A stretch of 64,000 nt of DNA from positions 7,502,001 to 7,566,000 of the forward strand of contig JAWMAR010000070.1 in NCBI GenBank assembly GCA_036785375.1, read 5' to 3'. The DNA is from Leucoraja ocellata (taxonomy: Eukaryota). This document shows positions 1,133-30,394 of the stretch, in pieces. The notes beneath the pieces are model-generated. The model made no database searches. It worked only from the letters and a program-made list of their open reading frames with translations, and was not told where the DNA came from. Position numbers and translations under genes: made by a program. Every line of letters starts with the position of its first letter. Positions within the stretch are counted from its first letter, which is position 1.

Positions 1133-3062
1133 ACATGGAGGTAGGTGGGTCTGGTTCCTGTCAACATACGCAGACAAAGGGTGTTGTATTAACAGGAGGA
1201 CGTTTAAGGTTCTTCAAACATGTTTGGTGCTCCTTTACTAACAACAAGTTCATACTCAACAGTATCAGTGGATACAAAATTGAATTTAAACCAGGCATAG
1301 AACCGCCGGTTCAGCACATACCCCAAAGGGTATTCCTTCCCACACAATTAGAGAAGGTAGAAGGACAAGCTGAACTAGATAGGCTCGTGTCCAAAGGCGT
1401 CATTGAGAGGGCAAGACACGAGCCATTGGAATTTGTATCGAATATATTCATCAAAACCAAAAAAGATGGTGGATGTCGCATTATTATTGATTTGACATCA
1501 CTAAATCAGTCTGTTGAGTATCAACATTTCAAAATGGAGACATTTGTTACTGCCAGACAACTGATCTCCAAGGGATACTTCATGGCAAGCATAGATATTA
1601 AGGATGCTTACTATTTAGTACCCATTCATAAGGATCATTTCAGATATCTGAAATTTATCTGGATGGGGCAACTATGGCAGTATAGAGCATTACCCAATGG
1701 GTTAACGACAGCTCCCAGATTATTTACAAAAATTCTCAAAGTGGCCATGAAAAAATTAAGAGAACAAAAACATTTAGTCATGGCCTATCTGGATGATGTT
1801 CTCATATTGGGGAGAACAAGGGAACTAGCTGTCGCAGGAGTCTTAGCTACTAAACAACTCCTTGAAACATTGGGATTTGTTCTACACCCAGATAAATCAA
1901 TATTGAAGCTAACAACTAACATGGACTATCTAGGCTTCACTATCGACACTATCCGTATGACTGTCATTCTGCCAAGAGACAAAAAGGCTGCATTAGCAGA
2001 AGCCTGTAACAACTTAATCGCAAAACACAACCAAAGATCCGGCATGTAGCCAGAGTCATTGGTAGTATAGTAGCAGCATTTCCAGCTGCACAATATGGGC
2101 CCTTGCATTATCAGAATTTACAAAGAGCAAGGACACATGCACTACGTCTAAGTAGGGGGCATTATGACCGAACTATGGACTTACCCGCTGAAGCCAAATC
2201 AGAACTTCAGTGGTGGGTGGATAACATTTGGCACAGTTACAGTCCTATCGCCGTCACCAATCCTAACATAGCCATTACAACGGATGCCAGTGCTTTAGGC
2301 TGGGGAGCTACTAACTCTATATCCAGCACAGGTGGCAGATGGACTAATTCAGAGGCATCGCTACTACAATCACTTGGCATAAATTATTTGGAGATGCTAG
2401 CCGCCTTTTATGGGCTAAAAGCATATGCATCCGATATGAGGCACGTGCATGTCAGGTTAATGATTGATAACACGACGGCGGTGTCTTACATCCAGCACAT
2501 GGGTGGCATAAAATCAGTATCATGCGACAAATTGACTACTATAATCTGGCAATGGTGTGTCGAGAGACATATTTGGCTATCAGCTGCCTATTTACCAGGC
2601 AAGCTAAACACAGTGGCGGACACCAGGTCACGAAAATTCAATGACAACATCGAATGGATGTTAGACCCAAAAATATTTGCTAGAATTGTTAAGCAATATG
2701 GTACGCCAGATATAGATTTGTTTGCGTCTAGATTAAATCACCAGCTACCCATGTATGTGGCTTGGGAACCAGAGGCAGCAGCGGTAGATGCCTTCACGCT
2801 GGATTGGGGAAATTTCTTCTTCTATGCTTTCCCTCCCTTCTGCCTCATCAGCCGGGTACTCCAGAAAATACAAGCAGACTCGGCTTCAGGTATTCTGGTC
2901 GTACCCGACTGGCCTACCCAACCATGGTTCCCAGTTTTCCACGACATGGTGGTAGAGTCACCTATGGTTTTTCACAGCCACCCACAACTATTGACTCATC
3001 CGGTATCCGGCATAAGCCATCCATGCCATCAAAAATTGAAACTCCTGGTTTGTAGGTTCTGA
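1129..3062 (+). pseudogene. DIRS pol: reverse transcriptase + RNase H + DNA N6-adenine methyltransferase-like domain, one frameshift near 2020-2030
   Basis: RT motifs IDIKDAY, LPNGLTTAPRLFTK, YLDD; RNase H TDASALGWG, INYLEMLA, DNTTAV; MTase-like DLFASRLN and YAFPPF. The frame changes between ORFs 1129-2049 and 2103-3062, and the connecting peptide PKIRHVARVIG reads in the second frame. Confidence 0.9.
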
Positions 3063-3079
3063 ACAGGCCTTACCAGGGA

Positions 3080-4033
3080 TTGGGGTTATCGGAACGAACA
3101 ATCACCACCATGTCGGCGTCCCTGCGAGTCTCTACCAAGAAACAGTACTTGACCTACATCAGGAAATGGGAGCAGTACTGCTTGGATGCAGGGACATCAT
3201 ACAAGACAGCCTCGATCACGGACGTGCTGGAATTCCTGGCCCACTTGCACCATGACCAAAAGATGAGCTACAGTGCCATCAATGCAGCACGGAGCGCCCT
3301 GTCCGCTTACCTTATGCCTACAGGACATCGCAGCATTGGATCCCACCCTCTGGTTATAAAACTCCTCAAAGGGATTTATAATACTAAACCCCCTACACCC
3401 AGATACACCCATGTATGGGATGTAAGTGTAGTTTTGTCACACCTTAGAGGTTGGCCTCCGGTGGGATCCTTGAGTCTGGAGCAGTCCACTCTCAAGACCC
3501 TCATGCTCATGGCGCTCGTCTCTGCACAAAGGGTTCAGTCGCTGCATCAACTAAGACTGGACAACATGGTAACCACCCCAGATTCCATTACATTTACCAT
3601 GCCGGGGTTGGTAAAACAAAGCAGGCCAGGTATGCCCAACTCTCCGTTAATCTTCCGGGCCTATCCTCCAGAACCTAGGCTGTGTGTAGTGACCCATCTA
3701 TACAACTACGTAGACACAACCCAAACGCTTAGAGGGAGTGAAAAAGCCTTATGAGTCAGCCACAAAAAGCCTTTTGGACGGGTTACCAGCCAGACAATAT
3801 CTAGGTGGTTGAAACAGGTCTTAAAAGCCGCGGGGATTAACACGGATGTTTTAAAATCCCATTCTACCAGGGCAGCGTCCACGTCAGCGGCGGAACGGAT
3901 GCAGGTTCCCATAGACCACATCCTTAGTACAGCGGGATGGTCAAGGGAATCAACGTTCCGGAAATTCTACCACAAACCGCTGATGGAGAAGGACTTGTTT
4001 GCGGACAAAATTTTAGAATCTGCAAACTTATAA
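3080..4033 (+). pseudogene. DIRS tyrosine recombinase with a single premature TGA at 3752-3754
   Basis: Catalytic residues AQR, HSTR, AGW and KFY present. The two ORFs are in one frame, separated by one stop (likely TGG>TGA). Confidence 0.9.
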
Positions 4034-4193
4034 TTTAAAGCCCAGGGGAGCTATTTTTGTTATTGTTAAATAAACAATTTTGTTTCAAAAAACTAACAAA
4101 TTCGTTGGTCTTTAGATACCACTTCCTCCCTCGATGAACTTCGGCAGTGAGTGATATAGCTGTTACACGGTTTGAAATCACAGACCTTTGAAG

Positions 4194-4530
4194 TCTTCAC
4201 GTAGTCACTCACGTGACTCCGAAGTAAAATAGTGAGATTAAACGAGTACTTACCAGTACCAAGTTTGATCTGTATTTTATGAGGAGTTACGATGAGGGAT
4301 TACGTGCCCTCCGCTCCCACCCTCGTTGTATAGATCAAACTCGAGCTGATGTCTCATTAATCTTTACTATCTTTACTTCAATATTGTGTCTACCTGTGAT
4401 TCCACACCGCTGCTTGGAAGTATGCCGCGCCTGCGCACTGGGTGGGTTCTTCACGTAATCCCTCATCGTAACTCCTCATAAAATACAGATCAAACTTCGT
4501 ACTGGTAAGTACTCGTTTAATCTCACTATT
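4194..4530. repeat. DIRS internal complementary region (ICR) and right terminal repeat
   Basis: 4228-4306 is the reverse complement of 4452-4530 (79 bp, 1 mismatch). TCTTCACGTA recurs at 4194 and 4449. Confidence 0.9.
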
Positions 4531-5630
4531 CTCTGCCACAGAAGATATTTGAGGCCAGTCATTGGCTTTATTTAAGAAGGAGTTAGATGTGGCCCTTGTG
4601 GCTAAAGGGATCAGGGGGTATGGAGAGAAGGCAGGTACTGGATACTGAGTCGGATGATCAGCCATGATCATGTTGAATGGCGGTGCAGGCTCGAAGGGCC
4701 GAATGACCTCCCCCTGCACCTATTGTCTATTGTCTATTGTCTATTGTCTATTGAGATAGGAAACATTTAAAGATACAAGTGCAGGCAGTTACAATCGTTA
4801 CTGTGCTGTACTGTTCCATGTTCCATGGCCTACTCCTGCACCTAATTTCTATGTTTCTATGTTTCAATGAGAGCCAGATAGGGTAGACAGTCAGAACCAA
4901 TTTGCGCAGAGTGGAAATGCCAAAGACTAGAGGGCATCGCTTTAGGGTAGGAGGCTTTCAAGAGAGAGTTAAATAGAGCTCTTAAATATAGCGGAGTCAA
5001 GGGATATGGGGAGAAGGCAAGAATGGGGTACCGATTGTGGATGGCGGTGATCACAGTGAATGGCGGTGCAGGCTCGAAGGGCCGAATGGCCAACTCCTGC
5101 ACCTATTGTCTATTGTCCATTGAGATAGGAAAAATTTAAAGATGTGCGGGACACAGAGGGTGGTGGGTGCCTGGAACACAATGCTGTGGGTGGTGGAGGC
5201 AGATACAATAGTTCAGAGTCTTTATCTAAAAGATCTCATGGACATGCAGGGAATTGAGATTATGGATCAGGTGCAGGCAGAGGAGATTAGCTGAACTTGG
5301 CATCATCTTCAGCACGGACCTTGTGGGCCGAAGGGCCTGTTCCTGTGCTGTTCCATGTTCTATGTTACATCATCTTCTCAATCACATCTTGAGAAGAACA
5401 TTTTCCAGAGGTGCCCTGGTACCACCAGTGTGACATTCATTGTATCTGCTGCAGTCAATGAGTGTGTTGTGTAGACAGCCAGAGGAGAAGATGGGATTTA
5501 TGTGGAGTTTCATTTTGTAATCATTATTTATTTAATGTCATAGTGTAATAGAGTCATAGAGTGATACAGTATGGAAACAGGCCCTTCGGCCCAACTTGCC
5601 CACACTGGCCAACATGTCCCAGCTACACTA
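4531..5630. repeat. Arm A of ~1-kb inverted segmental duplication (partner ~8315-9295)
   Basis: Same mosaic of CR1 pieces and unique sequence (e.g. 5370-5545 vs 8400-8580) in reverse complement, highly similar. Arm A carries an extra ~115 bp near 4710-4825. Confidence 0.9.
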
Positions 5631-5744
5631 GTCCCACCTGTCCACGTTTGGTCCATATCCCTCCAAACCTGTCCTTTCCATGTTCCTGTCTAACTGTTTC
5701 TTAAACGTTGGGATAGTTTCTGCCTCAACTGCGATGGGTTGACC

Positions 5745-6082
5745 AGAACGAGACGTGGTGGAGACACAAGCAGGATGTGTGGGGCGCCTGGTTGGCCGCT
5801 GGCAGCTGGGATGACGTTGTTCTTGTTAAACGTTAACGGCTGATGCAACGACACGTTTGGCAGAGGGTGGAGAGGTCGCGGCTGACTCCGGCCAATGCTC
5901 CGTGGGAGGCAGTGATTGGTTGAATGTACGTGAGGGCAGACAATGAGGGGCAGGAGAAGCCGGGAGTCGGTATAAAAGGAGCGAGCGATGGCAGGAGATG
6001 AGAACAAGACCGACCCCGTCACCCTGTGTGGAGACTCCGGAGCTGGTAACCAACCCTGTGGATCCTTCAAGTGTCTGTGAGT
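5745..6082 (+). promoter_or_regulatory. Promoter and non-coding exon 1 of IgV gene 1
   Basis: CCAAT 5892-5896, ATTGG 5915-5919, TATAAAA 5971-5977, donor GTGAGT at 6077. Block recurs nearly identically at ~10150-10573 (+) and ~16780-17172 (-). Confidence 0.7.
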
Positions 6083-6628
6083 GATGGGGGTGGGATTGTC
6101 TCTGTTCACTGTTCCCCCAGTTCAGAAGCCTGATAGCAGAGGGGAAGAAGCTGTTCCTGAGTCTGGTGGTGCGCGCTTTCAAGCTTCTGTACCTTCTGCT
6201 AGACAGGACCAGGGAGATGGAGGAATGACCGGGGTGGGACAAGTGATGGAGTCATAGAGTCACAGCGAGACCTTTGGCCCAACTTGCCCGCGCCCACCAA
6301 CGTGCCCCCATCAATACTAGACCCACCTGCCTGCGTTTGGCCCTTACCCCTCTAATCCTGTCCTATCAATGTACCTGTCTAACTGTTTCTTAATCATTGT
6401 GATAGTACCTGCCCCAACTACCTCTTCCGGCAGCTCGTTCCAAACACCCTCCACCCTTTGTGTAAAAAAGTCACCCCTCAGTTTCCCATGAAATCTTTCC
6501 CCCCCCCCCCTCGCCTTAAACCGATGTCCTCTGGTTCTCGATTCCCCAACTCTGGGCGGGTTCAGGGAATGTCATCATGAATCCTACTGAGTTGCAATAA
6601 GGTGACCCATTGTTTCACCCACAGGAAC

Positions 6629-7138
6629 ATGGGACTGCAGAGATGGATAGGATTCATGGTCCTTGTGGAGATGGTGTGGCAAGTCTCCGCAACTGGAACA
6701 GGTCCGATCTCCAGAGAATGGGGAGAGGAAGCAAACTTGCCCGGGTGGAACGCACGGGCCCCTCGGCAAGTCAACAAACAAGATACTCCACAATGCGGTG
6801 CTATATCAGCTTCGACCAAGTTACAATTCACGGATATAGAGACAAGCCAGGGTGGTTCTACTACGCTACCCTGTAAAGTACCCACAGGGAAGGATGGACC
6901 CAAGACTTTTGAGGTCACCTGGACTAAAGGGACGAAGACACTGGCCGTGTTTACTATAGGGAAAGGTGCCAATTATCCAGGGGGGGGCGGCCGCTGGAAG
7001 TTCAAGGAAACAAACGTGGATGAGACACGGGATGCCTCGTTGGTCATCAAGGGTTTACAGAAGAGTGATGTTGGGATGTATTCCTGCACTTGGCAAACGG
7101 GCAAAGATAAATGTAGACTAACTTCCAAGCTGTCATGA
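6629..7138 (+). CDS. Secreted single Ig V-type domain protein 1 (169 aa; signal peptide, propeptide, V domain)
   Basis: Acceptor TTTCACCCACAG at 6624 then ATG; hydrophobic leader MGLQRWIGFMVLVEMVWQVSA; RAPR; V-set motifs TLPC, VTW, RDASLVI, DVGMYSC; no TM segment before the stop. Confidence 0.85.
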   Translation: MGLQRWIGFMVLVEMVWQVSATGTGPISREWGEEANLPGWNARAPRQVNKQDTPQCGAISASTKLQFTDIETSQGGSTTLPCKVPTGKDGPKTFEVTWTKGTKTLAVFTIGKGANYPGGGGRWKFKETNVDETRDASLVIKGLQKSDVGMYSCTWQTGKDKCRLTSKLS

Positions 7139-7539
7139 AGTAAAACCTCACACTGACCCAGCACAGGCCCCCCCATGTCACAGAAGCAACAGGCAGTGGC
7201 AGGACAGCACAAACACACAATAACATCCATCATTATAAACTTCACATACTTAGACCAACAACAGCATTCTATATTGTAGTCACTTAATTGATCATGAGGG
7301 GAATAGAGGGGTGAACACAAAACATCTTTTACCTGGGGTACGGGAATCAAGAACCAGGGGGACATAAGTTTAAGGTTAGAGGGGCAAGATTTAATAGGAA
7401 CCTGAAGGGCAACATTTTCACTCAGAGGGCGGTGGGTTTATAGAACTGTCTGGTGGGGTGGGAATTGTAACAATATTTAATACACACTTGGGACAGGGAA
7501 AGGTTTAGGGGGATATGGGGCAAATGTAGTGCAATGGGA

Positions 7540-7790
7540 CAGATCGTGCTTGCATCAGTAAATGTATCATTAATGGAAATAAACTCTCTTGAAGACAGCC
7601 GGTGTGAGTGATTCTTTGTACGCCAGCATTGAGTTGGGTGTGAACTTTGTGCAACTCTTGCTCACTACGGGCAACATCGCCGGCTTCTATGAGCTGTGTC
7701 CAACATTGTCCATGACCACACGGGGACGGAACAACATGTGGAAAATCATGGAGTCCGCAGGTGTTGAGAACAGGAACAAAAATAACGGGG
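7540..7790 (+). terminator. Conserved 3' block with polyadenylation signal of IgV gene 1
   Basis: AATAAA 7578-7583 followed by GT-rich sequence; near-identical inverted copy downstream of IgV gene 2. Confidence 0.6.
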
Positions 7791-8314
7791 AATGTTGTCA
7801 GGAACAAAACAGGGACAAAAGTAAAGACTATATTTAAGAGGGAGTTAGATGTGGCCCTTGTGGCTAAAGAGATCAGGGGGTATGGAGAGAAGGCAGGTAC
7901 AGGATACTGAGTTGGATGATCAGCCATGATCATATTGAATGGCGGTGCAGGCTCGATGGGCCGAATGGCCTCTACTCCTGCACCTATTTTCTATGTTTCT
8001 TTGACACAAAAGTAGGCGGTTTTGCATGTGCAGGACCTACACAGTGAATAGTCCAGCTCTGGGGAATGTTGTAGAGCAGAGGGATCTATGAGTGAAGGTA
8101 CATGGTTCCTTGAAGATGCAGTTGCAGGTAGATACGGTGGTCAAAAAGGCTTTTGGCACTTTGGCCTTCATCAGTCACAGTATGGAGTATAGATGTTGGG
8201 AGGTCATCTTGCGTTGGTGAGGCAACATTTAGATCCCAATGTTTAAGGAACAGTGAGTCAGGTACATGGAGAGGACAGGTTTGGAGGGATATGGGCCAAA
8301 CACAGGCAGGTGAG

Positions 8315-9295
8315 ACTAGTGTAGCTGGGACATGTTGGCCAGTGTGGGCAAGTTGGGCCGAAGGGCCTGTGTCCACACTGTATCACTCTATGACTCTATT
8401 ACACTATGACATTAAATAAATAATGATTACAAAATGAAACTCCACATAAATCCCATCTTCTCCTCTGGCTGTCTACACAACACACTCATTGACTGCAGCA
8501 GATACAATGAATGTCACACTGGTGGTACCAGGGCACCTCTGGAAAATGTTCTTCTCAAGATATGATTGAGAAGATGATGTAACATAGAACATGGAACAGC
8601 ACAGGAACAGGCCCTTCGGCCCACATGGTCCGTGCTGAACATGATGCCAAGTTCAGCTAATCTCCTCTGCCTGCACCTGATCCATAATCTCAATTCCCTG
8701 CATATCCATGAGATTTTTTAGATAAAGACCCTGAACTATTGTATCTGCCTCCACCACCCACAGCATCGTGTTCCAGGCACCCACCACCCTCTGTGTCCAG
8801 CACATCTTTAAATGTTTCCTATCTCAATAGACAATAGACAATAGGTGCAGGAGTTGGCCATTCGGCCCTTCGAGCCAGCACCGCCATTCACTGTGATCAC
8901 CGCCATCCACAATCAGTACCCCATTCTTGCCTTCTCCCCATATCCCTTGACTCCGCTATATTTAAGAGCTCTATCTAACTCTCTCTTGAAAGCCTCCTAC
9001 CCTAAAGCGATGCCCTCTAGTCTTTGGCATTTCCACTCTGCGCAAATTGGTTCTGACTGTCTACCCTATCTGGCTCTCATAGAAACATAGAAACATAGAA
9101 ATTAGGTGCAGGAGTAGGCCATTCGGCCCTTCGAGCCTGCACCACCATTCAATATGATCATGGCTGATCACCCGACTCAGTATCCAGTACCTGCCTTCTC
9201 TCCATACCCCCTGATCCCTTTAGCCACAAGGGCCACATCTAACTCCTTCTTAAATATAGCCAATGATTTGGCCTCAAATATCTTCTGTGGCAGAG
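8315..9295. repeat. Arm B of inverted duplication; continues into an uninterrupted CR1 3' fragment (minus strand) to ~9595
   Basis: Reverse complement of 4531-5630. Confidence 0.9.
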
Positions 9296-10129
9296 AATTC
9301 CACAGATTCACCACTCTCTGTGTGAAAAATGTTTTTCTCATCTCAGTCCTAAAAGATTTCCCCCTTATCCTTAAACTGTGACCCCTTGTCCTGGACTTCC
9401 CCAACATCGGGAACAATCTTCCTGCATCTAGCCTGTCCAACCCCTTAAGAATTTTATTACCTTCTGTCAGGTCTCCGCTCAACATCTGAAGTTCTAGAGA
9501 AACCAATCCAAGATTATCCAACCTGTCCATATAACTTGCTATTGAGGGAGTGCAACGTAGGTTCACCAGGTTAATACCCGGGATGGCGGGACTGACATGT
9601 CAACTTCTTCTTTCGTGTGGCGTGCACAGCCTAAAGTTGTAGGACAACTTGTTCTATTTGATGTTGAAGTAGAAACTGCAGATACTGGAAAATCAAAGGT
9701 ACACAAAAATGCTGGAGAAACTCAGCGGGTGCAGCAGCATCTATGGAGCAAAGGAAATAGGCAACGTTTCGTCCTGAAGGTTCCCAGAGGTTGCAGGTGG
9801 TTGCCGGAGGTTGCAGGTAGTGGAAGCAGGTAGGGAGACAGACAAAAACCTCCGGGAACCGCACGGAAACCTTGGGTGGGGCGCAAAGTCTCCAGAGGTT
9901 TCCGTTCAGGTTTCCCAAGTGGGACAGGGGCATTAGTGCAACCTTGGACATTCCATAGACGTTCATCGTTGACCTCAGTGTCGTGTCGTGTTCAACAGCC
10001 TGATGGTTGTTGGGAAGGAAGAATTGATCCAACGCCATCCCAGCTGCCGGATCAGATTGAGTATAAACTGCGGAACCAGCGCAGGTGCCAAGGGCTGTGG
10101 TGGTGACGTGGCGTGGCTGGGACATCTGG

Positions 10130-10573
10130 TCCGATGGGTGGCCAAAGCGAGACGTGTTGGAGACACAAGCAGGATGTGTGGGGCGCCTGGTTGGCCGCTG
10201 GCAGCTGGGATGACGTTGTTCTTGTTAAACGTTAACGGCTGATGCAACGACACGTTTGGCAGAGGGTGGAGAGGTCGCGGCTGACTCCGGCCAATGCTCC
10301 GTGGGAGGCAGTGATTGGTTGAATGTACGTGAGGGCAGACAATGAGGGGCAGGAGAAGCCGGGAGTCGGTATAAAAGGAGCGAGCGATGGCAGGGGATGA
10401 GAACAAGACCGACCCCGTCACCCTGTGTGGAGACTCCGGAGCTGGTAACCAACCCTGTGGATCCTTCAAGTGTCTGTGAGTGATGGGGGTGGGATTGTCT
10501 CTGTTCACTGTTCCCCCAGTTCAGAAGCCTGATAGCAGAGGGGAAGAAGCTGTTCCTGAGTCTGGTGGTGCGC
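10130..10573 (+). promoter_or_regulatory. Orphan third copy of the IgV promoter/exon 1 block
   Basis: TATAAAA 10370-10376, donor GTGAGT 10476; near-identical to ~5750-6175; joined abruptly to Gypsy pol at 10574. Confidence 0.7.
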
Positions 10574-12734
10574 AATCAGGCTGATATTTCACTGAAGTCC
10601 GGAATAAATTTGCTCAAGTAGTTCACGATGCTAAGGAATCTCTGCAGACTGAGCACGTGTGTGGGTGCTGGGAGCTTGTTGATGGCACTGCTTTTCACCG
10701 GATCAGTTTTTAGGCCATCCTTAGTGAACACATGACCTAAGCATTTCACCTCACTTACCCTGCATTTGCATTTTTTAGGGTTTAGCTTGAGGTTGATGGC
10801 CTTGGCGCGATCCAGGACCTTTGTCAGATTAGCATTGTGATCTTCGACAGTTCGTCCAGCAACGAGGATGTCATCCACTACAATGGAGCATGGGTAAACC
10901 GCAAACAACTGCTCCATAGCTTGTTGAAATACTTCACTGGCAGAGCTTATGCCAAAAGGCATGCGAAGAAATTTGTAACGCCCGAACGGAATGCTAGGTG
11001 GTTAACTTAGAGGAGTTGTGTTCCAGCGAAATCTGCCAGAATGAACTCTTGGCATCTAGTACAGTGAATACAGTTGCCTCAGCCATCTGTGCTGCAATCT
11101 TGTCCACAGTGTGCATGGGATAGTGAGGTCATTTAATGCCTGTGTTTAAGTCCTTATGGTTGATGCAAATCCGTATTTCGTCTTTATTCTCCTTCGTTGC
11201 CACAACCATGGTGGAGACCCAATCCGAGGGGTCAGCGATGGGAGCAATCACACCTAGAGATACCATTCCGTTGAGTTCACTTTGAACACGGTCCCGCAAT
11301 AGCATGGGGAATCTTGTGAGCTGGACGGACAACTGGGATTATCTCAGAGTTAATGGTAATTGTGTACTTAGCAGGCAGCCTGCCCCGCTTGTCGTCAAAA
11401 AAAGTTTTGTATTGTGTCAGGATTTGTTGGCTAAAGTCACAGGTTGTAGTCAGATGACAAACAGAAAGGCTGAAGGAGACAAGTCCCAGGTCGTGACGAG
11501 CGTTGGCACCCAGCAGAGACGGCACATGCTCACGAACAACATAGAAACTCAGGTTGTGGACACGTGAGTTAAGACAGCAGCGTAACTCGACTTGACCGAT
11601 AGGGTGCACTGGGCCTCCTGCAAATGGGAGAAGGGAGGCAGTCGTAGGAGTGACGGTGTCTGTTTTTCGTAACTTTTTCAACACAGCTAGACAGATCACA
11701 TTACATCTGGCCCCTGTGTCAACTTTCAGATAAAAGTTCTTGCCATTCATGAGCAAAGCGACCTTGGGGTCTAGTTGTTTGTGTATTGAGTCAGATGGGA
11801 ATGCACATCACAGTCAAAACCTTCGCTAGCAGCCTGCAAATCCGTGGGAGCTGGTTGAGAGCATTCCAACTGCAAGTTCTCATGGCCAAGTGAGTTAACA
11901 GATTGCCTTGTTTGAACTCTGTTGCTACGTGAGCGGCAGAATTTGATGAGATTATTCCTTTTGTAACAAAATCGACATAATTTTCCATACGCAGGGCAAC
12001 GGTCACAAGCAGCAGCATGCAAACCCCCACAGTTAAAACAATTGTCTCATGATAGAGTTATCGGGCACTTGAGGAGAACAGCGAGAGATTTGTTAAGACA
12101 AGGCACTGGCATACATCTCCACAGGCTCACCGTGTCTCTGGCTTCGGGAAAAGAACAAATGCCTCTCCATGACCAAGTTAGTGCGTAACTCACATAACTG
12201 TTGGAATTTGCGTAGTAGGCAATCAGGGTCACAGATAGACTCAGTGGGAACAATCTGGACACCAGCCGGGTCAAACCTAGCCAGTCCATAATAAAATCTT
12301 CTGGCACATCAAGCAGCTTCTGTGCCTGCTAGATTAAGAAGAATTGACGCTTGAACACCGGGAGCAGCAGTAGGGTGAGTTGCTTCAATGTAAAATGAGA
12401 AATCTTCTTCAAATATGCGCCACCTTTCTGCGAGGCCTTCGTGGTGTTACACAGGATCTCTGGGTTTTCTGAGAGCAGAAGCCACAGTAATATATACCGG
12501 AGGAAACAACAAACTAAAATAAAAACAAGGAGTGAGTCCGTCCACTCTGACACCATGTCGATCTTCTGCTATTGGAATAACTTAAGTCACACACGGTGAT
12601 TAAGATCCAAAGACTTTATTAGCGTTACAGCATAGGTAACTTCATCTTAATATGTAACTCAAGACTGAGGGAGAAAGGGCTGAGAAGCTTTCTGTTAAAC
12701 TAGTGGGCGTAGCTACAAAGTATGACTCACAACA
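10574..12734 (-). mobile_element. Degenerate, 3'-truncated Gypsy (Mag-like) LTR retrotransposon
   Basis: Short LTR ~12556-12734 (TGTTG...CGACA, AATAAA 12615-12620); PBS TGGTGTCAGAGTGG (tRNA-Leu-like) 12542-12555; gag double zinc knuckle (CPAYGKLCRFC); protease VDTGA; RT MPFGISSASEVFQ and VVDDIL. Frameshifted and cut before RNase H. Confidence 0.9.
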
Positions 12735-14476
12735 TGAGTGACACAGGGAAAGAACCCAGCACAAAGTTTAATGATTAGATTTGGATAACAAAAGATGGCC
12801 TTGTCGGTGGCACCTACATCACGTTAAATCTTAGTGCAATTGCATTTTTTTAAAAAGTTTAAAATTACCTACGCAGTTGGGCACTATGGGTGAGTGGTGG
12901 AATCTTACATTGGGGAGCGTGTTGCGTTGGGGGACTAAGCCTCCCGCGGGGGCTATGGGTGAGTGGTGGATTATTGCGTTGGGGGAACGGGTTACGGTGG
13001 GGGAATGGGTTACGTTGGGGGAACGGGTGGGTGGTGGATTTGGGTTGTGTTGGGGGAATGGATGAGTGGTGGATTATTTTGTTGGGGGATGGGGTCTAAC
13101 GGGTCCCACTTGATCTAGACAACTATAAAATTCTTAAGGGATTGGACAGGCTATATGTTAGAAAAATGTTCCCAATGTTCGGGGAGCCCAGAACCAGGGG
13201 TCACAGTATAAGAATAAGAGGTAGCCCATTTAGGACTGGGATGAGGAAACAAAATTCACCCAGAGAGTTGTGAATCTGTGGAATTCTCTGCCACAGAAGG
13301 CAGTGGAGGCCAATTCACTAAAAGTTTTCAAGAGAGTTAGATTTAGCTCTTAGGGATAAAATAATCAAAGGATATGGGGAGAAAGCAGGAACAGGGTACT
13401 GATTTAGGATGATCAGCCATGATCATATTGAATGGCGGTGCTAACTTGAAGAGCCGAATGGCCTCTACTCCTGCTATTTTCTATGTTTCTATCTCCCTTT
13501 GGATCCCATGCGATCTAATATTTCAGAGCAGCCTACCATGCGGTACCTTGTCTCATCTCTTGCTGAAACTCACATATACATCATATGCAGCTATGCCATC
13601 ATCAACCTTTTTGGTCACATCTTTAAAAAACTCATTCATATCTGTGAGACACTACCTCCTGTATACAAAACCATCTCTAATCAGCCCTTGTCCATCTAAA
13701 TACATGTATAGATATCCCTCAGAAAACTCTGTAGTAACTTTCTCACCACAAATGTTCTGCTCATGGGGTCTACATTTGTTACCTTACACCATGCTCACTG
13801 GCCCAAGTGCTGAGGTGCAGCTGCTGTGGTGAAACCTGTGTGTGACGTGCGGACTACGACTTAGATCTGACCAGATGCCCTGGACCTTGCTTCATCATTG
13901 GCTGAGATCACACCAGTCACAGCAACTCCACTTTTGTTCAGCTTCTAAACATTGGCCGGTGTGGGCAAGTGGGGCCGAAGGGCCTGTTTCCACACTGTAT
14001 CACCCTATGACGCTAAAGATGGAAATGCCAAGTTAGAGAGCACAGTTTTAAGGTGAAAGGACAAAGCTTAAAGCAGATGTGCAGGGCAGTTATTTGACAC
14101 AGTGGGTGGTGGGTGCCTGGCATGTGCTGCCAGGGGTGGGGGTGGTGGGGGCAGATACGATATGGCATTTAAGAGACATTTGGATAGGCACATAAATATG
14201 CAGGGATTGTAGGGATGTAGATATGTGCAGGAAGATTAGAGTACGTCTTGGCATCATGTCCAGCACACACGTTATGGGCCGAAGGGCCTGTTCCTGTGCT
14301 GCACTGTTCTATGTTCTACAACAGTAACTAAACTATGAACCATGGATTGTTTTTGGATGCACGAGGACTTTAGACTTTTTGCACTAGTATTGGGGTTATA
14401 AATTAATTGATGTTTTGTTTATTAAATATTCTCTATGAGTACGGTGTTTCCAAGCCTGTTCTGCTGCTTCAGGTAA

Positions 14477-14791
14477 TGGCCCATGTCCCACGGTACGAGT
14501 TCATTCCAAGAGTTCTCCCGAGTTTGCCCTGATCTGAACTGGGAGATTTACGGTAATGGCCGCTCGTCGGTACTCGGGGCTCTCGTGGACTATTATCAAC
14601 AGGTTGAAAAATCTTCACGAGTCTTCCCGTGCTTACCTGCCGTTAGCGAATCTTCCTGAGTACCTGCCGTTAGCGTTACAAGCCGCTAAGAGACGTCCCC
14701 GCTACGTTCAGTCTCCGTGCTTATCACGAGTTTGATTTTTTTTAAACTCGGGAGAGCTCTTGGGATGAACTTGTACCGTGGGACAGGGCCA
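14477..14791. mobile_element. PIF/Harbinger-type MITE
   Basis: Long imperfect TIRs TGGCCC(A)TGTCCCACGGTAC...GTACCGTGGGACAGGGCCA with TAA target duplication (14474-76, 14792-94). Confidence 0.8.
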
Positions 14792-14999
14792 TAAGGATTT
14801 CATAGTTCCATTGTTGGTACATACGACAATGAAACACTCTTGACTCTAGACTCTTGATACCTGAGACCATATGATCCACCTAACTTCACCGCCAAACATC
14901 CTCTCTTGCCCGGTTCTGTTGAAGGATCTTCATTCTGAAACGTTGCCTCTGTTGCTCCCCCTCAGATGCTGCCTGACCCACTGTGTGTCTCCCACATTC

Positions 15000-15245
15000 C
15001 CCTTTATTTTTGTTCCTGTTCTCAACACCTGCGGACTCCATGATTTTCCACATGTTGTTCTGTCCCCGTGTGGTCATGGACAATGTTGGACACAGCTCAT
15101 AGAAGCCGGCGATGTTGCCCGTAGTGAGCAAGAGTTGCACAAAGTTCACACCCAACTCAATGCTGGCGTACAAAGAATCACTCACACCGGCTGTCTTCAA
15201 GAGAGTTTATTTCCATTAAACGTACATTTACCGGTGCAAGCAAGG
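15000..15245 (-). terminator. Conserved 3' block with polyadenylation signal of IgV gene 2
   Basis: TTTATT 15206-15211; inverted copy of 7540-7790. Confidence 0.6.
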
Positions 15246-15776
15246 TCAGTTCTCCTCACTGCATGCGATCCACGCTCACACCTTCCACGCTGCTCATCTT
15301 TATACCTTTATTATTCCCTACTTGGTGTCATAGCACGAAAACAGGCCCTTCAGCCCAACTCGCCCATGCAGACCCATATACCCCATCTAAGCCAGTCCTC
15401 AGCCACCCCATCAAATAATTCCTATCCATGGATCCATCCAAGTGTCTATTAAATGTTGTTTTAGTGCCTGCCTCCACTACCTCCTCTGGCAGCTCGTTCC
15501 ATACACCCGCCACCCTCTGAGAGTAAATGTTGCCCCTATTTATATAGAGTTTGCACGTTCTCATTGTGGATGGTTCCGTGTATGTTTGCAGGTTAATTGG
15601 TCAGTGTAAATTGTCCGTAGTGTGTGGGACAGAACTGGTGTATGGGGTGATCACTGGTCCCCATTGACTCTGTGGGCCAAAGGGCCTGTTTCCCTGCTGT
15701 ACCTCTGAACTAAACTACACTAAACTAGACTTTGCTACTGACCCTGGGGCGGGCCCTGTTGAATGAGTGGAAGCTT

Positions 15777-16286
15777 TCAATCCATTAACAGCCAGGTCTC
15801 TTCTTCACAATTCCCTTGATTATAAGTGGTCCAAATGCAGGAATATATCGCCTCATCGTCCTCTTGTGCCCGTGTCAGGAGCAACGAGGCGTCCCGATGC
15901 AGGATGACGTTTTGATGCACGAACCACCGATGGACATCAGACCTTTGATAATTCGCAAAGGTCCTATATGTGGCAATGGAAACACCATCTTTACTCCACG
16001 AAACAGAGCTCAGTGCACCGTAATCTTCGGATATTTTACAGTACAGCGTTACAGAACTACCCGGAGATGCAATGATCACATTATGTCTAGTTATGACAGG
16101 CTGACCTAGCCTGCCCTGGCAGTCTGGAAACCGATCTTCATTGACCTGCCGAGGCTCCCGTGCGTTCCACCCGGGCAAGTTTGCTTCCTCTCCCCATTCT
16201 CTGGAGATCGGACCTGTTCCAGTTGCGGAGACTTGCCACACCATCTCCACAAGGACCATGAATCCTATCCATCTCTGCAGTCCCAT
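15777..16286 (-). CDS. Secreted single Ig V-type domain protein 2 (169 aa)
   Basis: Same acceptor and leader as gene 1; REPR; V-set motifs TLYC, VSW, RDASLLL, DEAIYSC; no TM segment. Confidence 0.85.
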   Translation of the reverse strand: MGLQRWIGFMVLVEMVWQVSATGTGPISREWGEEANLPGWNAREPRQVNEDRFPDCQGRLGQPVITRHNVIIASPGSSVTLYCKISEDYGALSSVSWSKDGVSIATYRTFANYQRSDVHRWFVHQNVILHRDASLLLTRAQEDDEAIYSCIWTTYNQGNCEEETWLLMD

Positions 16287-16869
16287 GTTCCTGTGGGTGA
16301 AACAATGGGTCACCTTATTGCAACTCAGTAGGATTCATGATGACATTCCCTGAAGCTGCTGCCACCACACTGGGCAATGTCACTGTGCAGCTTCTACAGC
16401 TCCCGCCTGGTTTAGTTTAAGTTGCTTTGACCTGTCGTGGACCAACAACATTGAAGTGGCAGCCAAGGAGGCACACCAATGCATCTACTTCCTCAGAGAC
16501 AGAGGAAATACGACAAGTCTCCAATGTCTCTTAGAAACTTCTACAGATGCACCACAGAGAGCAGACTGTGGGGTTGCATCACAGCTTGGTTTGGGAACAG
16601 CTCTGAGCCCAAGATCACAAGATATTGCAGAGTTGTGGATGGAGCCCAGTCCATCACACAGACAACACTCCCCACCAGTGACTCCATCTACAACCAAAAA
16701 AATCAAAGACTTGTCCACCCCAGTCAACCCTCCTTCTCCCTGGTCCTGTCTAGCAGACGGTACAGAAGCTTGAAAGCGCGCACCACCAGACTCAGGAACA
16801 GCTTCTTCCCCTCTGCTATCAGGCTTCTGAACTGGGGGAACAGTGAACAGAGACAATCCCACCCCCATC

Positions 16870-17172
16870 ACTCACAGACACTTGAAGGATCCACAGGGTT
16901 GGTTACCAGCTCCGGAGTCTCCACACAGGGTGACGGGGTCGGTCTTGTTCTCATCTCCTGCCATCGCTCGCTCCTTTTATACCGACTCCCGGCTTCTCCT
17001 GCCCCTCATTGTCTGCCCTCACGTACATTCAACCAATCACTGCCTCCCACGGAGCATTGGCCGGAGTCAGCCGCGACCTCTCCACCCTCTGCCAAACGTG
17101 TCGTTGCATCAGCCGTTAACGTTTAACAAGAACAACGTCATCCCAGCTGCCAGCGGCCAACCAGGCGCCCCA
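16870..17172 (-). promoter_or_regulatory. Promoter and non-coding exon 1 of IgV gene 2
   Basis: TATA 16975-16981, donor at 16875, CCAAT boxes; reverse complement of the gene 1 promoter. Confidence 0.7.
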
Positions 17173-19644
17173 TGATGCAATGACACGTTTAGCAGAGGGT
17201 GGAGAGGTCGCGGCTTACTCCAGCCAATATGTGGGACAAGTCGTCGACTGTTGGGACATCTTTGATGACCACACTCTCGTTAGTAATTAACGGCGGCTGC
17301 CTAGCAACCACACGGAGACAAGTCTGGGCACCACCCTGTGGATGACAGTGTTTGCTTGACACCAGTTTGTATTGGGGTGGCACAGTGGTAGCATAGCAGT
17401 AGAGTTGCTGCCTCACAGCGCCAGAGACCCGGGTTCGATCCTGACTATGGGCGCTGCCAACCGGTGACAACGGCCAGACAACGGCCATTCTTCACCTGGT
17501 TAAATTGTAACGTTTCATTCTTAATTGTTAACTGTATATCGTGTTGTAACGTGAGCAAAGCACCAAGGCAAATTCTTGTATGTATACATACTTGGCTAAT
17601 AACATTTATTCAATTCAATTCATAGCAACTGAAATTGCTGACTTTAATTGATAAACTGTTTATCAGGATGAGGGGAATTTTGAAGGATGAGAGGAGGACC
17701 TCATTGAAACATACTGAATAGTGAAAGGCCTGGACAGAGTGGATATGGAGCGGATGTTTCCATTATTTACAGTCCAGGACAAGAGGGCACAGCCTCAGAA
17801 TAAAAGCAAGTACCGCTAGGAAGGAGATGAGGAGGAATTTCCTCAGTCAGACGGTGGTGAATCTTTGTAATTCATTGCCACAGATGGCAGTGGAGGCCAA
17901 GTCATTGGGTATTTTTAAAGTGGAGATTGACAGATTTTTGATTAGTACGGGTGTCAGAGGTTATGGGGAGAAGGCAGGAGAATGGCGTTGAGAGGGAGAG
18001 ATAGATCAGCCATGATTGAACGGCGGAGTAGACTTGATGGGGCAAATGGCCTAATTCTGCTCCTGAAACTGATGCACATGAACAGACACAAAGTACGCTG
18101 TTATCTGTTTGAAATTATGGCTTTATTTTATTGTTTTAACAGCAACAATTATCTTTGTGATGGACAATCGATCGGTGGTGGAAGTTCCCGGCTGTTTGTC
18201 GAGCGCAGTCTGCAACAGAAAGATCATCTTAGAATTCTCACAACCAGGAAGGATGTCTACACATCAGATCAAAAACAATATCTAAAGTACGTCTTTTTTT
18301 TTAAGTTTCTAGTTTAGTTTAGTTTATTATCACGTGGACCGAGGTGCAGTGAAAAGTATTTTTGTTTGCGTGCTATCCTGTCAGTGGAAAGACTACACAT
18401 GATTACAGTCCAGCCGCCCACAGTGTACAGATACAGGATGAAGGGGTTAATGTTCAGTGTGAGGCAAAGGCTGATCAGAGATAATCCAAAGTGTGATGGG
18501 GCTGCACAGCAGGGAGACAGGCCGTTCAGTGCATACCTGACCCTCACTCATTTTCCCCAACATTCCCATCAGTTCTCCCCAGATTCCAACCCTCACCTAC
18601 ACATGAGGAGCAATTTACAGAGGGCCTGTCAACCTACAACCCTGCGCAACTTTGGGATGTGGGAGGAAACCGGAGCTCCTGGAGAAAAACCCACGCGGTC
18701 ATGGGGAGAACGTGCAAACTCCGTCACCCAGAGAGTTGTGAAACTGTGGAATTCTCCGCCACAGAAGGCAGTGGAGGCCAATTCACTGGATGTTTTCGAG
18801 AGAGAGTTGGATATAACTCTTAGAGCTAATGGAATCAAGGGATGTGGGAGAAAGCAGGAATGCGGTACTGATTTTGGATGATCAGTCATGATCATATCGA
18901 ATGGCGGTGCTGGCTCGAAGGGTTCTAACTCCACACACAGACAGCTCCGGTAGTCAGGATTGAACCTGTGTCTCTGGAGCTGTGAGGCAGCAGTTCTACC
19001 CGCTGCACGGCTACATTTTCTGAAGTGGTCGCCTGTTTTCTGGCCCTTGCCCATCCCCACCACCGCACTCTTCACTCCAGGCTGCCCGTTATCAGGGGAC
19101 AACTCCATGAAGCCAGGGACCCAGAGAGGAGGTGACACGGTGGCGCAGCGGGAGACACACCGCTTACATATCTTACAGCGCCAAAGACCTGGGTTCCATC
19201 CTGACCACGGGCACTGTCTGTACGGAGTTTGTACGTTCTCCCCGTGACTGCGTGGGTTTTCTCCGGGTGCTCCGGTTTCCTCCCACATTCCAAAAACATA
19301 CAGGTTTGTCGGTTAATTGGCTTCTGTAAATTGAAAATTGTCCATAGTGTGTAGGATAGTGTTAGTGTACGGGGTGGCATGGTCTCGGTGGGCTGAAGGG
19401 CCTGTTTTTGCGCTGTTTCTCTAAAGGCTAGAGGTGACTCTGCTGGGTGAAAATACTATGACCAATGAATGTTTAGGATGGCCAGTCACATACTACTCTT
19501 GTGTTTCTTACCCCATGAGCATTTCAGTGTGGAAGGGCAAGTAGGGTCAGTATGGACTTGTTGGGCCGAAGGGCTGTTTCTGAGCTGTATGACCCGATGC
19601 CCAGTATAGAGTGTGAGGTCGGCAAGCAGTCTCACCTTCTGCCA

Positions 19645-22600
19645 TTAAGGCCAGTTGCAACATTTACAGGATAAATCGAAGACTAATCCAGTGGCACAGC
19701 TCTTCAGGTAGGTCCGACCATTGGCGCACTGGTAGAACTTGTTCTTGTCCTTGGGATCAGCGAAGGTACCGTTGGCTTTGCCCTTACAGAAGCCACTGCC
19801 TCCACCACCGCTGCTGCCACCACCGCTGCTGCCACCGCCTCCACCACCACTAGGGGCATCAGTAGGTGGGACCGCCGGCGCCAATGTTGTCTTGGATGGG
19901 ACGCAAGCTGCAAAGAAACACAGTTCGTTATAAGTTCATAAGCTCTCCTCAATTCATAGGAGAATTGGCCCATTGGGTTTACTCCACTATTCAATCATGG
20001 CTGGTCTATCACTCCCTCTCAACCCCATTCTCCTGCCTTCTCCCCATAAACCCTGACACCAGAACTAATCAAGAATCTGTCAATCTGAAATGCCCATTGA
20101 CTTGGCCTCCACATCCACCTTAGTTCAAGTTGAAACAAGAAACCGCAGATGCAAGTGTGAATATCGTGGTCAATGGGATTATGCCACTGAACCTCCCTCT
20201 CACCAACTCCAGCGGGTTCCTGACCTCCCATCTACCCCAGATGCTGGTCTATAAAAAGAGCCACAATGTGCTGGAGTAACAGTTGCTTGTTCTCTATACC
20301 CACCACCCTCTGTGTGGAAAACGTAGCTACATACCTAGTCCTACCACTATCTGCCTCCACCACCACCCCTGGTAGCGTGTTCCAGGCACCCACCACCCTC
20401 TGTGTGAAAGACTTGTCCCGCACATCTCCATTACCTCCAGAGATGCCAAGGCCAGAGTGCAGACTGTTGATGAGGGGGTAGGGTCCCTGGTGACAGAAGG
20501 CACCAGAGAAGTCATCCAGAGCCAGATCCCAGACCATAGCTCCTCCAAAGTTGTTCTTCTTCAGCCACGCAACCTGGAAGACACAGTTCACAACTTTACA
20601 CCAACATCCCTCAGTCAATAATGGCTTCTACAATGTGCTTTCTATCGGGATTCATCACAGCACGGTTTGGGAATGGCTCTATCCAAAACACGCAAGAAAT
20701 TGCAGCAAGTTGCTGACGCAGCCCAGACCATCAGGTAAACCAACCTCCCTTCCATTGACTCCATCTACACCTCACGCTGCCTCAGCAAGGCCACCCGCAT
20801 AATCGAGGACCAGTCTCGCCCAAGCACCAGAGAAATAAAAACAGAAATTCCACATTTCCTCGCTGTGAATCATTTCATGAGGGCAGCACGGTGGCGCAGC
20901 GGTAGAGCTGCTTTGCTGCCTCACAGCGCCAGAGACCCGCCAGAGATCCTGACTACAGGTGCTGTCTGTATGGAGTTTGTACGTTCTCCATGCGACCTGC
21001 GTGGGCTTTCTCCGGGTGCTCAGGTTTCCTCTCACACTCTAAAGACATACAGGTTTGTAGATTAATTGTCTTCGGTAAAATTCCTGGTGTGTGTAGTACA
21101 GTGCCCAGTGTGTGGGGATCGCTGGTCGGCCCGGACTCGATGGGCCGAAGGGCCTGTTTCCAGCTGTACCTCTAAACTATACTAAACTAAAGGTTACTCC
21201 CTGCCTTCCTCACACAGTCCCGCCCCCAATGGAAATATATAAAATCCCTAGAGAACAAATGTCAGATCCAAATCAAAAATGTCAATGTTTAAAGCACATT
21301 CTAAAGAGCATAGCATCAATTTTAACGGCGACTTAAACTTGTTTGAACTGCATAACAAAGCATGATCATCACTTAACATCCAATGGAAGGCACAGATCTA
21401 AGGCAAATGTGACTTACTTTATAAAATAGAAATAATAATTTTGTTCATAAGTGATAGGAGCAGAATTAGGCCATTCGGCCCATCAAGTCTACCCCGCCAT
21501 GGCTGATCTATCTCTCCCTCCTAACCCCATTCTCCTCCCTTCTCCCCATAACCCATGACACGCGAACACCATGAATTTATGGTGAGCTGGAAATTTTATG
21601 CAGAATGTTAACGACAAAAGATTCTAAGGATTTTGAAGCATAATTCTGGAGTTCACTGTTGGAAACTCTGCAGTAGATATTGAGATAAACGAGACCACGG
21701 TGGTTCACGCGGGAAGGGTGGAACTTCGATGGTCAGATGTACCTTGTCTCCGAAGCTCTTGACGTTGTCATAGCCGACCCATATTCCACTCTTGAAGGCG
21801 TACGGGGTGTCTTGTGGGGCGTTCCATTCGCTGGTGGCACCGTTCAGGAACCCGCAGATCTGCCCAGAGACGGAGATGTTAGGGACCAATCTTGTCGAGT
21901 TGGAAAAAATCATGAGAGGAACCGATCAGGTAAACGCAAACGCAGAGACGGCGAATCGAGAACCAGAGGACATGGGTGAGGGAGAAAGATTTAATAGGAA
22001 TGGTGCTGGCTTGAAGGGCCGAATGGCCTACTCCTGCACTTATTGTCTATTAAATCTGAGGGGTAACCATTTGACTCCAAGGGTGGTGGGTGGCGATAGT
22101 GACAAAGGCTGGAGGGGAACAGGAGACGAAATAGTGTCAGATACTGAGAGGAGAGGGCAAGAGAGATGTGGAGAGATGTGCAAAGAGAGGAGGAAAGAGG
22201 TGAGAGAGATATAGGTTAAGAGAAGGGAGAAAGACATGAAAGAGAAAGATAGAAAGAGGAGAGGAGAGAAAGATGTATAAAGAGCGATATGTCCAGAAAG
22301 TGGAGGAGAGAGATATAAAGCCGGAGGGAGGGATGTGGTGAGAAGGAGATAGTGGGGAGGGCAAAGATGAAGGGGAGGATAGAAGGGAAATGGGGATCTC
22401 TTGAGAGGAGGGGAACGGAGAACATGGGTGTGCGATGTTTCGGGTGGAGATCCTTCCTCAGGCTGCAGCACCTTGTGTCCATCTATGTTGTGTGTGGTTA
22501 TTCAGTATTGGATTGGAAGATAACATTGAGTAAAGAGCCACGCGGTTGGATTGGTCGGTAGGTACAGTACCTCATAGTAGGCCAGGAAGCCGGCTTGGCG

Positions 22601-29405: not shown

Positions 29406-30394
29406 TGACTTCAATATTTTCTCTTCAATGTCATTCAGATTGTTCACCTTCATTTTCACCTCAATTTTGTTCCTGAGCATGGTATGGAAAAAACATAGAA
29501 AATAGGTGCAGGAGTAGGCCATGCCGTGAATTGGCCTCCACTGCCATCTGTGGCAGAGAATTCCACAGATTCACAACTCTCTGGGTGAAAAATATTCTCC
29601 TCATCACTGTCCTAAATGGCCTTCTCTCTCCTTCACCTACTTAGTTTAGAGATCCAGCATGGAAACAGGCCCCATCGGCACGCTGGGACCACGGCAACCA
29701 GCGATTATGCGTTCACAGTAGATCGATGTTTTCCCTCTTTCTCATCCACTCCCTACTCACTAGGGTGCAATTTACAGAGGGTCATTTGGCCTACAAACAT
29801 AGAAACGTAGAAATTAGGTGCAGGAGTAGGCCATTCGGCCCTTCGAGCCTGCACCGCCATTCAATATGATCATGGCTGATCATCCAACTCAGTATCCCGT
29901 ACCTGCCTTCTCTCCATACCCCCTGATCCCCTTAGCCACAAGGGCCACATCCAACTCCCTCTTAAATATAGCCAATGAACTGGCCTCGATTACGCTCTGT
30001 GGCAGAGAGTTCCAGAGATTCACCACTCTCTGTGTGAAAAAAGTTCTTCTCATCTCGGTTTTAAAGGATTTCCCCCTTATCCTTAAGCTGTGACCCCTTG
30101 TCCTGGACTTCCCCAACATCGGGAGCAATCTTCCTGCATCTAGCCTGTCCAACCCCTTAAGAATTTTGTAAGTTTCTATAAGATCCCCTCTCAATCTCCA
30201 AAATTCTAGAGAGTATAAACCAAGTCTATCCAGTCTTTCTTCATAAGACAGTCCTGACATCCCAGGAATCAGTCTGGTGAACCTTCTCTGCACTCCCTCT
30301 ATGGCAATAATGTCCTTCCTCAGATTTGAAACGTCACCTATCCACGTCCTCCAGAGATGCTGCCTAACCCCCTGAGTTACTCCAGCACTCTGTG

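Follow-up and report, generated by a model that had tools for sequence, protein, structure and literature searches.

A tandem family of predicted secreted single-IgV genes in Leucoraja ocellata with a near-identical promoter/leader module and divergent V domains

We analysed a 64,000-nt stretch of the skate Leucoraja ocellata (assembly GCA_036785375.1, contig JAWMAR010000070.1, positions 7,502,001 to 7,566,000 of the forward strand; hereafter the window). It contains two genes, g56 (6629-7138, plus strand) and g57 (16286-15777, minus strand), each encoding one immunoglobulin variable-type (IgV, or V) domain behind a predicted signal peptide. A first-pass annotation had treated them as a pair; they form the end of a 57-copy array on the contig that carries the window (C70). 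Copies whose V domains share 27-50% identity are about 1% apart in the 5' module. We propose, with a rough probability of 0.6, that conversion keeps the promoter and leader alike, that the V domain is under positive selection, and that the array is an inherited set of secreted decoys that bind microbes or parasites. The observations behind this proposal are the array and the anatomy of its genes, the contrast between module and V domain, an unlinked control within the genome, dN/dS (nonsynonymous over synonymous divergence) above 1 in the V domains, with values of 2-3, V lineages found across species and a setting among chitinase genes. This skate tandem family, which has an electric-ray orthologue, is apparently undescribed.

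The array and its genes

C70 was tiled from 6.902 to 7.502 Mb and the window was added, which gave 57 leader copies at 6.993-7.518 Mb; the minus strand carries 31 of them and the plus strand 26. Intact open reading frames (ORFs) are present in 51 copies and six are truncated. A leader search of the own genome returned 59 candidates, all 40 scored ones being on C70, and an exact leader 20-mer has 54 matches there, again all on C70. Every gene consists of a TATA promoter and a 5' exon, followed by a single exon that codes for signal peptide, short spacer, IgV domain and stop. The intact ORFs are 169-190 amino acids (aa) long and yield 33 distinct mature sequences; identity among 20 mature representatives has a median of 36% and a minimum of 27%. 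The V domains form about six deep lineages, one of them a basic clade (isoelectric point, pI, about 9-10; charge up to +13) and the others neutral or acidic. Exactly four cysteines occur in 50 of the 51 intact mature domains.

The array falls into block A, with 32 genes (about 328 kb), and block B, with 25 genes, ending in the window. Both blocks start right after a 200-N gap (the gaps on C70 are at L079:2805 and L032:930), and block A also finishes at one. The blocks are colinear, chitinase flank included, with 2.15% single-nucleotide divergence over 37 kb; the 5' part of the chitinase gene spanning the first gap is present as one copy, its last scored exon as two. The assembly amounts to 3.44 Gb, and the exons of ATP synthase b are present twice, on small contigs. 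For the little skate, an excerpt of PMC10115646 gives a heterozygosity of 1.6% and a genome of 2.2 Gb. Given the gaps, the colinearity, this heterozygosity, the assembly size and the doubled exons, blocks A and B are probably two uncollapsed haplotypes that differ in copy number, with block A scaffolded in tandem, and false duplication may affect other loci of the assembly as well. The ATP synthase b family, used for a synteny test, proved to have no copy on C70. In one DNA data set, leader contigs were about 22 times deeper than the contig with a g57-type V (283-302 versus 13.3), a ratio that is not a copy number.

The two ORFs of the window, 169 aa each, were re-derived at the coordinates given above. 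The parts of g56 and g57, in window coordinates, are as follows.

5780-5977, plus: g56 promoter, with CCAAT at 5892, reverse CCAAT at 5915 and TATA at 5971; common to the whole array
5978-6076, plus: g56 exon 1, probably mostly untranslated; donor at 6076/6077, 5' end not mapped, in-frame upstream ATG at 5988
6077-6624, plus: g56 intron, 548 nt, mid-intron class A, middle repeat-derived
6629-6691, plus: g56 predicted signal peptide, aa 1-21, cleavage VSA/TG judged by eye
6692-6766, plus: g56 constant spacer or putative propeptide, aa 22-46, ending at PR/QV
6767-7138, plus: g56 single IgV domain, basic clade, pI 9.4, extra cysteine pair, followed by the stop codon
7539-7795, plus: g56 polyadenylation signal (7578) and array-wide 3' homology block
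14994-15250, minus: g57 polyadenylation signal (15211) and 3' homology block
15777-16148, minus: g57 single IgV domain, acidic lineage, pI 5.1; AlphaFold2 (AF2) model with a predicted local distance difference test score (pLDDT) of 80 and a nectin/CAR D1-like fold
16149-16286, minus: g57 predicted signal peptide and spacer, equal to g56 over codons 1-42
16291-16875, minus: g57 intron, 585 nt, mid-intron class B, 99% identical with basic-clade genes such as g29
16876-17172, minus: g57 promoter and exon 1, TATA at 16981

GT-AG splice sites lie at 6076/6625 in g56 and 16876/16290 in g57, the polyadenylation signals are AATAAA, and both proteins pass the Pfam V-set cut-off. The three blocks of shared DNA reported for the two genes were all recovered: promoter and exon 1 with the intron start (5780-6244 and 17172-16709, 465 nt, 98.7%), the leader block (6561-6774 and 16354-16141, 214 nt with 3 mismatches, at 6759, 6760 and 6769, the 198 nt before the first being identical) and the 3' block around the polyadenylation signal (7539-7795 and 15250-14994, 257 nt, 96.1%). 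The leaders of g56 and g57 have synonymous differences at 0 of 28 sites. Their V domains are as strongly diverged as had been described, with 29% identity, dS 0.63 and dN 0.83.

Two inverted structures adjoin these genes. Arms of 890 nt at 4825-5714 and 8233-9122, 97% complementary to each other, bracket g56, which suggests that g56 was inverted or inserted via recombination between them. Next to the g57 promoter lies a 56-nt inverted promoter piece (17173-17228), which is present in block A and at the unlinked paralogs described below as well and marks an old rearrangement within the module.

Conversion of the expression module and selection on the V domain

Module distances were calculated for 56 of the 57 genes (one was missed by the motif). 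The mean p-distance is 0.006 in the promoter, 0.004 in exon 1, 0.014 in the 5' part of the intron, 0.004 at its 3' end and 0.018 in the leader; over promoter and exon 1 (5800-6076), 33 of 40 scored copies are 100% identical. Across a 1-kb module of the 47 class-A genes, the 420 pairs with a V p-distance above 0.4 differ by 0.012, compared with 0.0105 for pairs at 0.02-0.1. Among 32 informative sites of the module, 16 show both alleles in both V clades. The first-pass annotation had found the mid-intron divergent and a 3' block shared. The former holds for the pair, since g56 and g57 carry different classes, but across the array 46 of 56 genes have one class, nine another and one is unique; class B unites the acidic g57 and g32 with part of the basic clade. 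The 3' block is near-identical in the pair, but its array-wide part begins downstream of AATAAA only, and in nine of the 57 genes it is not present within 2 kb.

An unlinked control came from a query with the electric-ray orthologue, which identified two paralogs on another contig of the same genome (G000:C16; L093:4113-5486 and L094:5341-6766). One is intact (179 aa, with a spacer 10 aa shorter) and the other is frameshifted; neither has a match to the array 3' block. Both cluster with g57 in the V tree (support 92/86), and their promoter and intron are 8-13% diverged from it. Compared with g57, the intact C16 copy has a V p-distance of 0.235 (dS 0.23) and differs at 16/192 promoter, 9/105 exon 1 and 43/326 mid-intron positions, whereas the linked g29, at a V p-distance of 0.37, differs at 2/192, 0/106 and 3/354 (binomial 5e-18). 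Thus, the linked gene with the more distant V has a near-identical repeat-derived intron, whereas the unlinked gene with the closer V has a diverged one, which argues that gene conversion in cis likely keeps the promoter/leader module near-identical. As in concerted evolution, linked paralogs resemble each other in the non-coding flanks more than their age would permit, and their resemblance to unlinked ones is lower. The conversion suggested by the first-pass annotation is therefore supported, both by this control and by the alleles and intron classes that cross V clades. Divergence peaks of the same pattern are known for converting duplicates (excerpt of PMC3924837). Conversion tracts would cover promoter, exon 1, intron, leader and a 3' block and would halt at the V, which may be too divergent for conversion and in which overwriting may be selected against.

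There is a second possible origin of the 5' identity, namely very recent duplication with extreme acceleration of the V domain, or purifying selection at the nucleotide level, with no conversion at all. The array does hold many recent segmental duplications, and across three DNA data sets the deepest leader contigs are 0-2 bases apart (0 and 1-2 in two data sets other than the one above, in which the g57-type V shows 30/about 430 and 51/about 450 differences). However, the synonymous sites of the V domains have themselves diverged (dS 0.4-0.7) and the V lineages are older than the little-skate split. Moreover, genes of different V clades share 99% identity in the repeat-derived mid-intron, which is 13% diverged from the unlinked copy, and the allelic pairs g31/g56 and g30/g55 have the same V with different leader ends. 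Duplication or purifying selection without conversion is thus strongly disfavoured. A promoter dispersed as a transposon was also considered and rejected: the 64 candidates correspond roughly to the array and C16 copies, and all 42 matches listed are inside the array. No chitinase gene with the array promoter was found within the 664 kb examined.

Turning to the V domain, pN/pS (nonsynonymous over synonymous differences per site) among 40 unique coding sequences (CDS) rises and falls with V distance: 0.58 for the 33 closest pairs, then 1.7, 2.8 (at 0.05-0.1), 2.1 (at 0.1-0.2) and 1.15, with 1.03 for the deepest. Of the 40, 26 entered the selection tests (11 from the basic clade, 15 from the L clade), near-duplicates and small lineages being omitted. 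For the basic and L clades, respectively, tree-free N/S ratios are 1.9 (p 0.005) and 2.2 (p 0.004), M0 omega is 2.1 and 3.5, and the likelihood-ratio test (LRT) of M2a over M1a gives 34.7 and 89.2. The values above 1 at intermediate distances, together with the site models, support positive selection behind the diversification that had been noted. When 36 selected sites were placed on the g57 model, most fell in the N-terminal segment, the C, C' and C'' region, the DE loop, the end of F, the FG loop and G, and none on strands B or E. Among cross-species V differences classified by single-base treatment, 11/13 and 11/15 change the residue (subsets of 30 and 51).

Protein architecture, relatives and transcripts

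Invariant alignment columns, AF2 and Foldseek show the V-set hallmarks: the B/F cysteine pair, the C-strand tryptophan, D-x-G-x-Y-x-C and an A'BCC'DEFG fold. The AF2 model of the g57 V is an IgV fold with an N-terminal segment of low confidence. Its nearest folds are the D1 domains of nectin-1, PVR, nectin-2, JAML and CAR (19-28% identity, TM-score up to 0.75), many of which were solved in complex with viral or immune ligands. One could speculate that the family arose from a truncated, possibly retroposed nectin/CAR-type V, on the basis of this fold and the intronless leader and V. Co-conservation suggests that the N-terminal cysteine pairs with the strand-G cysteine. A complex prediction of the g56 V with the g57 V scored 0.12 against a mark of 0.34 and is counted neither way.

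The proteins are predicted to be secreted. The stop comes right after strand G in six of six genes inspected, and no transmembrane segment was found, no 19-aa window past residue 25 exceeding a hydropathy of 1.69. At the junction of leader and V, the 51 intact genes have RAPRQV (22), REPRQV (17), RAYFKV (8), RAYWQV (2) or other motifs (2). Thus, the R-x-P-R site described before is present in 41 genes, but RAYFKV or RAYWQV replaces it in the other 10, and a furin-type site would not be obligatory. PRQ is kept in the electric-ray and C16 proteins.

A different topology would follow if the exon-1 ATG were the true start: the hydrophobic stretch would then be an uncleaved signal anchor, and the product a type II receptor with a 31-aa tail, perhaps shed at PR/Q. 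This ATG has a good Kozak context, is in frame in 55 of the 57 cluster genes, is used in the NCBI models and is present in an assembled transcript-like contig (Logan, see below); the electric-ray model is likewise N-terminally extended. However, at 5988 in g56 it is just 17 nt from TATA and thus upstream of the usual start of transcription, about 30 nt past TATA. The C16 paralogs both have it out of frame, and the ray extension lacks homology; the shared frame within the cluster may be a product of conversion. The hydrophobic stretch is also short and contains a glutamate, with a hydropathy in g56 of 2.06 over the best 11 aa and just 1.17 over the best 19. We therefore favour the 169-aa form and regard a type II receptor as improbable.

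Word-indexed searches matched one Rhinoraja protein and six little-skate clusters, which are eight NCBI proteins (LOC129708937-946), all named 'uncharacterized'. Six of these eight pair with lineages of the array at 87-99% and the other two at 82%; V lineages are common to L. ocellata and the little skate. The electric-ray orthologue XP_069798310 (automatically named 'nectin-1-like') came from an exhaustive profile search and shares the signal peptide pattern, PRQV and the four cysteines; its spacer is longer, and it has no transmembrane segment. A follow-up search including it gave no further members. The top 150 of the profile search are mostly multi-Ig proteins, of which 10 were looked up and four read; none of the 150 is a fused form with leader, and P0085 and P0009 are the sole full-profile single-stretch matches among the hits looked up. 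Longer fused forms are beyond the length range of the word-indexed searches, and the profile search has no length limit. Within the length and sensitivity limits of the searches no shark members were found, and an Atlas search returned generic Ig clusters only. A match on C1288 was rejected as a family member, being an unrelated nectin-like V exon. The family had been called uncharacterised, and it is so in the databases, with no description found in the literature that was searched; the six little-skate LOC identifiers have no literature mention in a coverage that stops short of supplementary tables, which might name loci.

A 900-nt Logan contig encodes a 202-aa family member joined at the predicted splice junction. 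It is most likely spliced RNA, since CDS and intron together would need about 1150 nt, and the predicted splicing rests on this one assembled contig.

Proposed role, comparable systems and surroundings

GH18 chitinase exons extend from 6.93 to 7.96 Mb of C70, on both sides of the array, and one chitinase gene lies inside the array in each block. The window has two chitinase genes, which are part of a larger chitinase array (roughly a dozen genes in about 1 Mb of C70):

20546-27475, minus: GH18 chitinase gene
48650-63307, plus: GH18 chitinase gene, ending with three CBM14 domains

From the homogenised module we infer that a single cell type would co-express all copies as a mixture. In the mature protein the signal peptide would be gone, the spacer probably trimmed near PR/Q and the N-terminal cysteine paired with that of strand G. 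The loops and the C-C'-F-G side would contact foreign ligands of varying kind on a mucosal surface, possibly one that also secretes chitinase. Chitin has reportedly been found in the ampullae of Lorenzini, which are therefore another candidate site. The binder function, with its anti-microbe or decoy role, is putative. Excerpts of PMC5594555 describe a comparable secreted bat IgV family under diversifying selection that was read as decoys.

Several observations weigh against this proposal. The closest V pairs have a pN/pS of 0.58 and the deepest of 1.0, dS between deep clades is close to saturation, and the site models were self-implemented, with a tree-based LRT that recombination inflates. 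The leader is nearly unchanged across species, little-skate leader proteins being identical or nearly so, and its first 34 codons are 3.9% diverged from C16 compared with 8% for the promoter; purifying selection therefore contributes besides conversion, and the clustering of leaders by species predicted from conversion did not emerge. PR is absent from the junction in 10 of 51 intact genes, and in the NCBI models and the Logan product translation begins with the ATG of exon 1, placing 31 more aa ahead of the hydrophobic stretch. The chitinase linkage is possibly incidental. Finally, in four RNA runs, each from a different study and read to 1-25%, exon 1, V and 3' block had no coverage; apart from roughly one read pair at the leader, all depth was repeat-derived. 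Such near-absence points to narrow or low expression and is not evidence of silence; a fifth RNA run had 0 reads on g57 and does not count as a test.

Narrow expression would also fit a reproductive or social role, in which the same genes, under the same conversion, encode seminal-fluid, egg-case, gamete-recognition or chemical-cue proteins driven by sexual conflict or individual recognition. Copy number differs between the probable haplotypes, as such a role might entail, and fertilisation proteins are said to duplicate rapidly. Furthermore, PSGs are secreted IgV proteins of reproduction (excerpt of PMC5594555). On the other side, nothing points to the gonad, and the retention of V lineages across species at 87-99% in six of eight little-skate proteins fits balanced specificities better than species-specific turnover. 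We consider a reproductive or social role unlikely relative to that of microbe- or parasite-binding decoys.

One of the closest parallels to such decoys is the expanded secreted IgV family of bat PSG-like CEACAM paralogs, which shares diversifying selection, several selected sites on the CFG face, restricted expression and a decoy hypothesis (excerpts of PMC5594555). PSG genes, however, have further domain exons, whereas the skate genes have leader and V in one exon, four cysteines and a homogenised promoter/leader, and CEACAM is absent from the Pfam, PDB and homology hits shown for the skate proteins. With the D1 domains of nectin, PVR, CAR and JAML only the fold is alike: the skate proteins lack further Ig domains, transmembrane segment and tail, and have an extra cysteine pair and an intronless leader and V. 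CD300, MDIR and SITR likewise form innate multigene families of V type and have two disulfides; the MDIRs are skate proteins and SITR is soluble (excerpt of PMC3031540). Unlike them, the skate genes encode a single domain that lacks YWC and whose second cysteine pair joins the N-terminal segment and strand G; no CD300-type cysteine is seen in strand C or C' of the skate alignments, and membrane members were not found.

The V-set fold and variable loops are shared with Ig, TCR, VNAR and UrIg, the last of which is also non-rearranging and secreted (excerpt of PMC12227049). The skate genes differ by the absence of recombination signal sequences (RSS), FGxG/WGxG, a split leader and constant domains. 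FGxG/WGxG in strand G was found in 0 of 51 intact genes. An RSS scan of the 57 genes gave four loose matches to the consensus in three genes, all broken copies and all 3' of the stop region, and somatic rearrangement was rejected. VCBPs are secreted germline V-type proteins tied to chitin at a mucosal surface (excerpt of PMC4757023), and the skate genes have a similar setting, interspersed with GH18 chitinase genes of which one encodes three CBM14 domains. A VCBP, though, has V and chitin-binding domain in one chain, whereas the skate ORFs end after one V and CBM14 is in a separate chitinase gene. It is a doubtful extension that the array is a second, batoid antibody-like system without rearrangement, in which one promoter maintained by conversion serves all genes, V cassettes are shuffled between 5' and 3' blocks, haplotypes have repertoires of their own and co-secreted chitinases would complete in trans a VCBP-like chitin/microbe defence in a jawed vertebrate.

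The layout also resembles that of mussel CRP-I, with its conserved pre-pro part, positively selected mature part and invariant cysteines (excerpt of PMC4558851), although the mature part here is a 120-aa Ig domain and its cleavage is putative. This likeness, and a clade as strongly cationic as +13, would be expected of toxin-like or enzyme-inhibitor effectors against prey. Yet no toxin family was matched in Pfam or PDB and the other clades are neutral or acidic. Skates are not known to be venomous, and we think such effectors highly improbable. Human red/green opsins likewise have homogenised flanks and a divergent selected region (excerpt of PMC3924837); the skate peak differs in being a whole domain, with about six deep lineages in dozens of genes.

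The family would thus add lineage-restricted stand-alone V domains, probably disulfide-stapled, to those of cartilaginous fish, from which the VNAR single-domain antibodies already come. It may also offer an unusually clear example from nature in which an expression module is fixed by conversion and a whole binding domain is held divergent by selection, with an unlinked control available within one genome. As the V is small, encoded by a single exon and has little-skate orthologues, tissue, processing and ligand are directly testable in that model species.

Other elements of the window are listed here:

988-4500: DIRS-like retroelement with overlapping reverse transcriptase (RT) and tyrosine-recombinase-type ORFs
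10135-10573, plus: orphan promoter, exon 1 and intron start, interrupted by an RT-bearing retroelement fragment; coding exon lacking
10576-12500: decayed RT-bearing retroelement fragment directly after the orphan promoter copy, which we take to be Gypsy-like

Nested inverted repeats (I3-I8) at 30394-32737 and 33553-35905 form an interrupted palindrome of about 5.5 kb, which is partly inverted relative to block A. A 66-nt tandem satellite derived from a dispersed repeat occurs at 24596-25291, 28630-29193, 32714-33095 and other places in the window.

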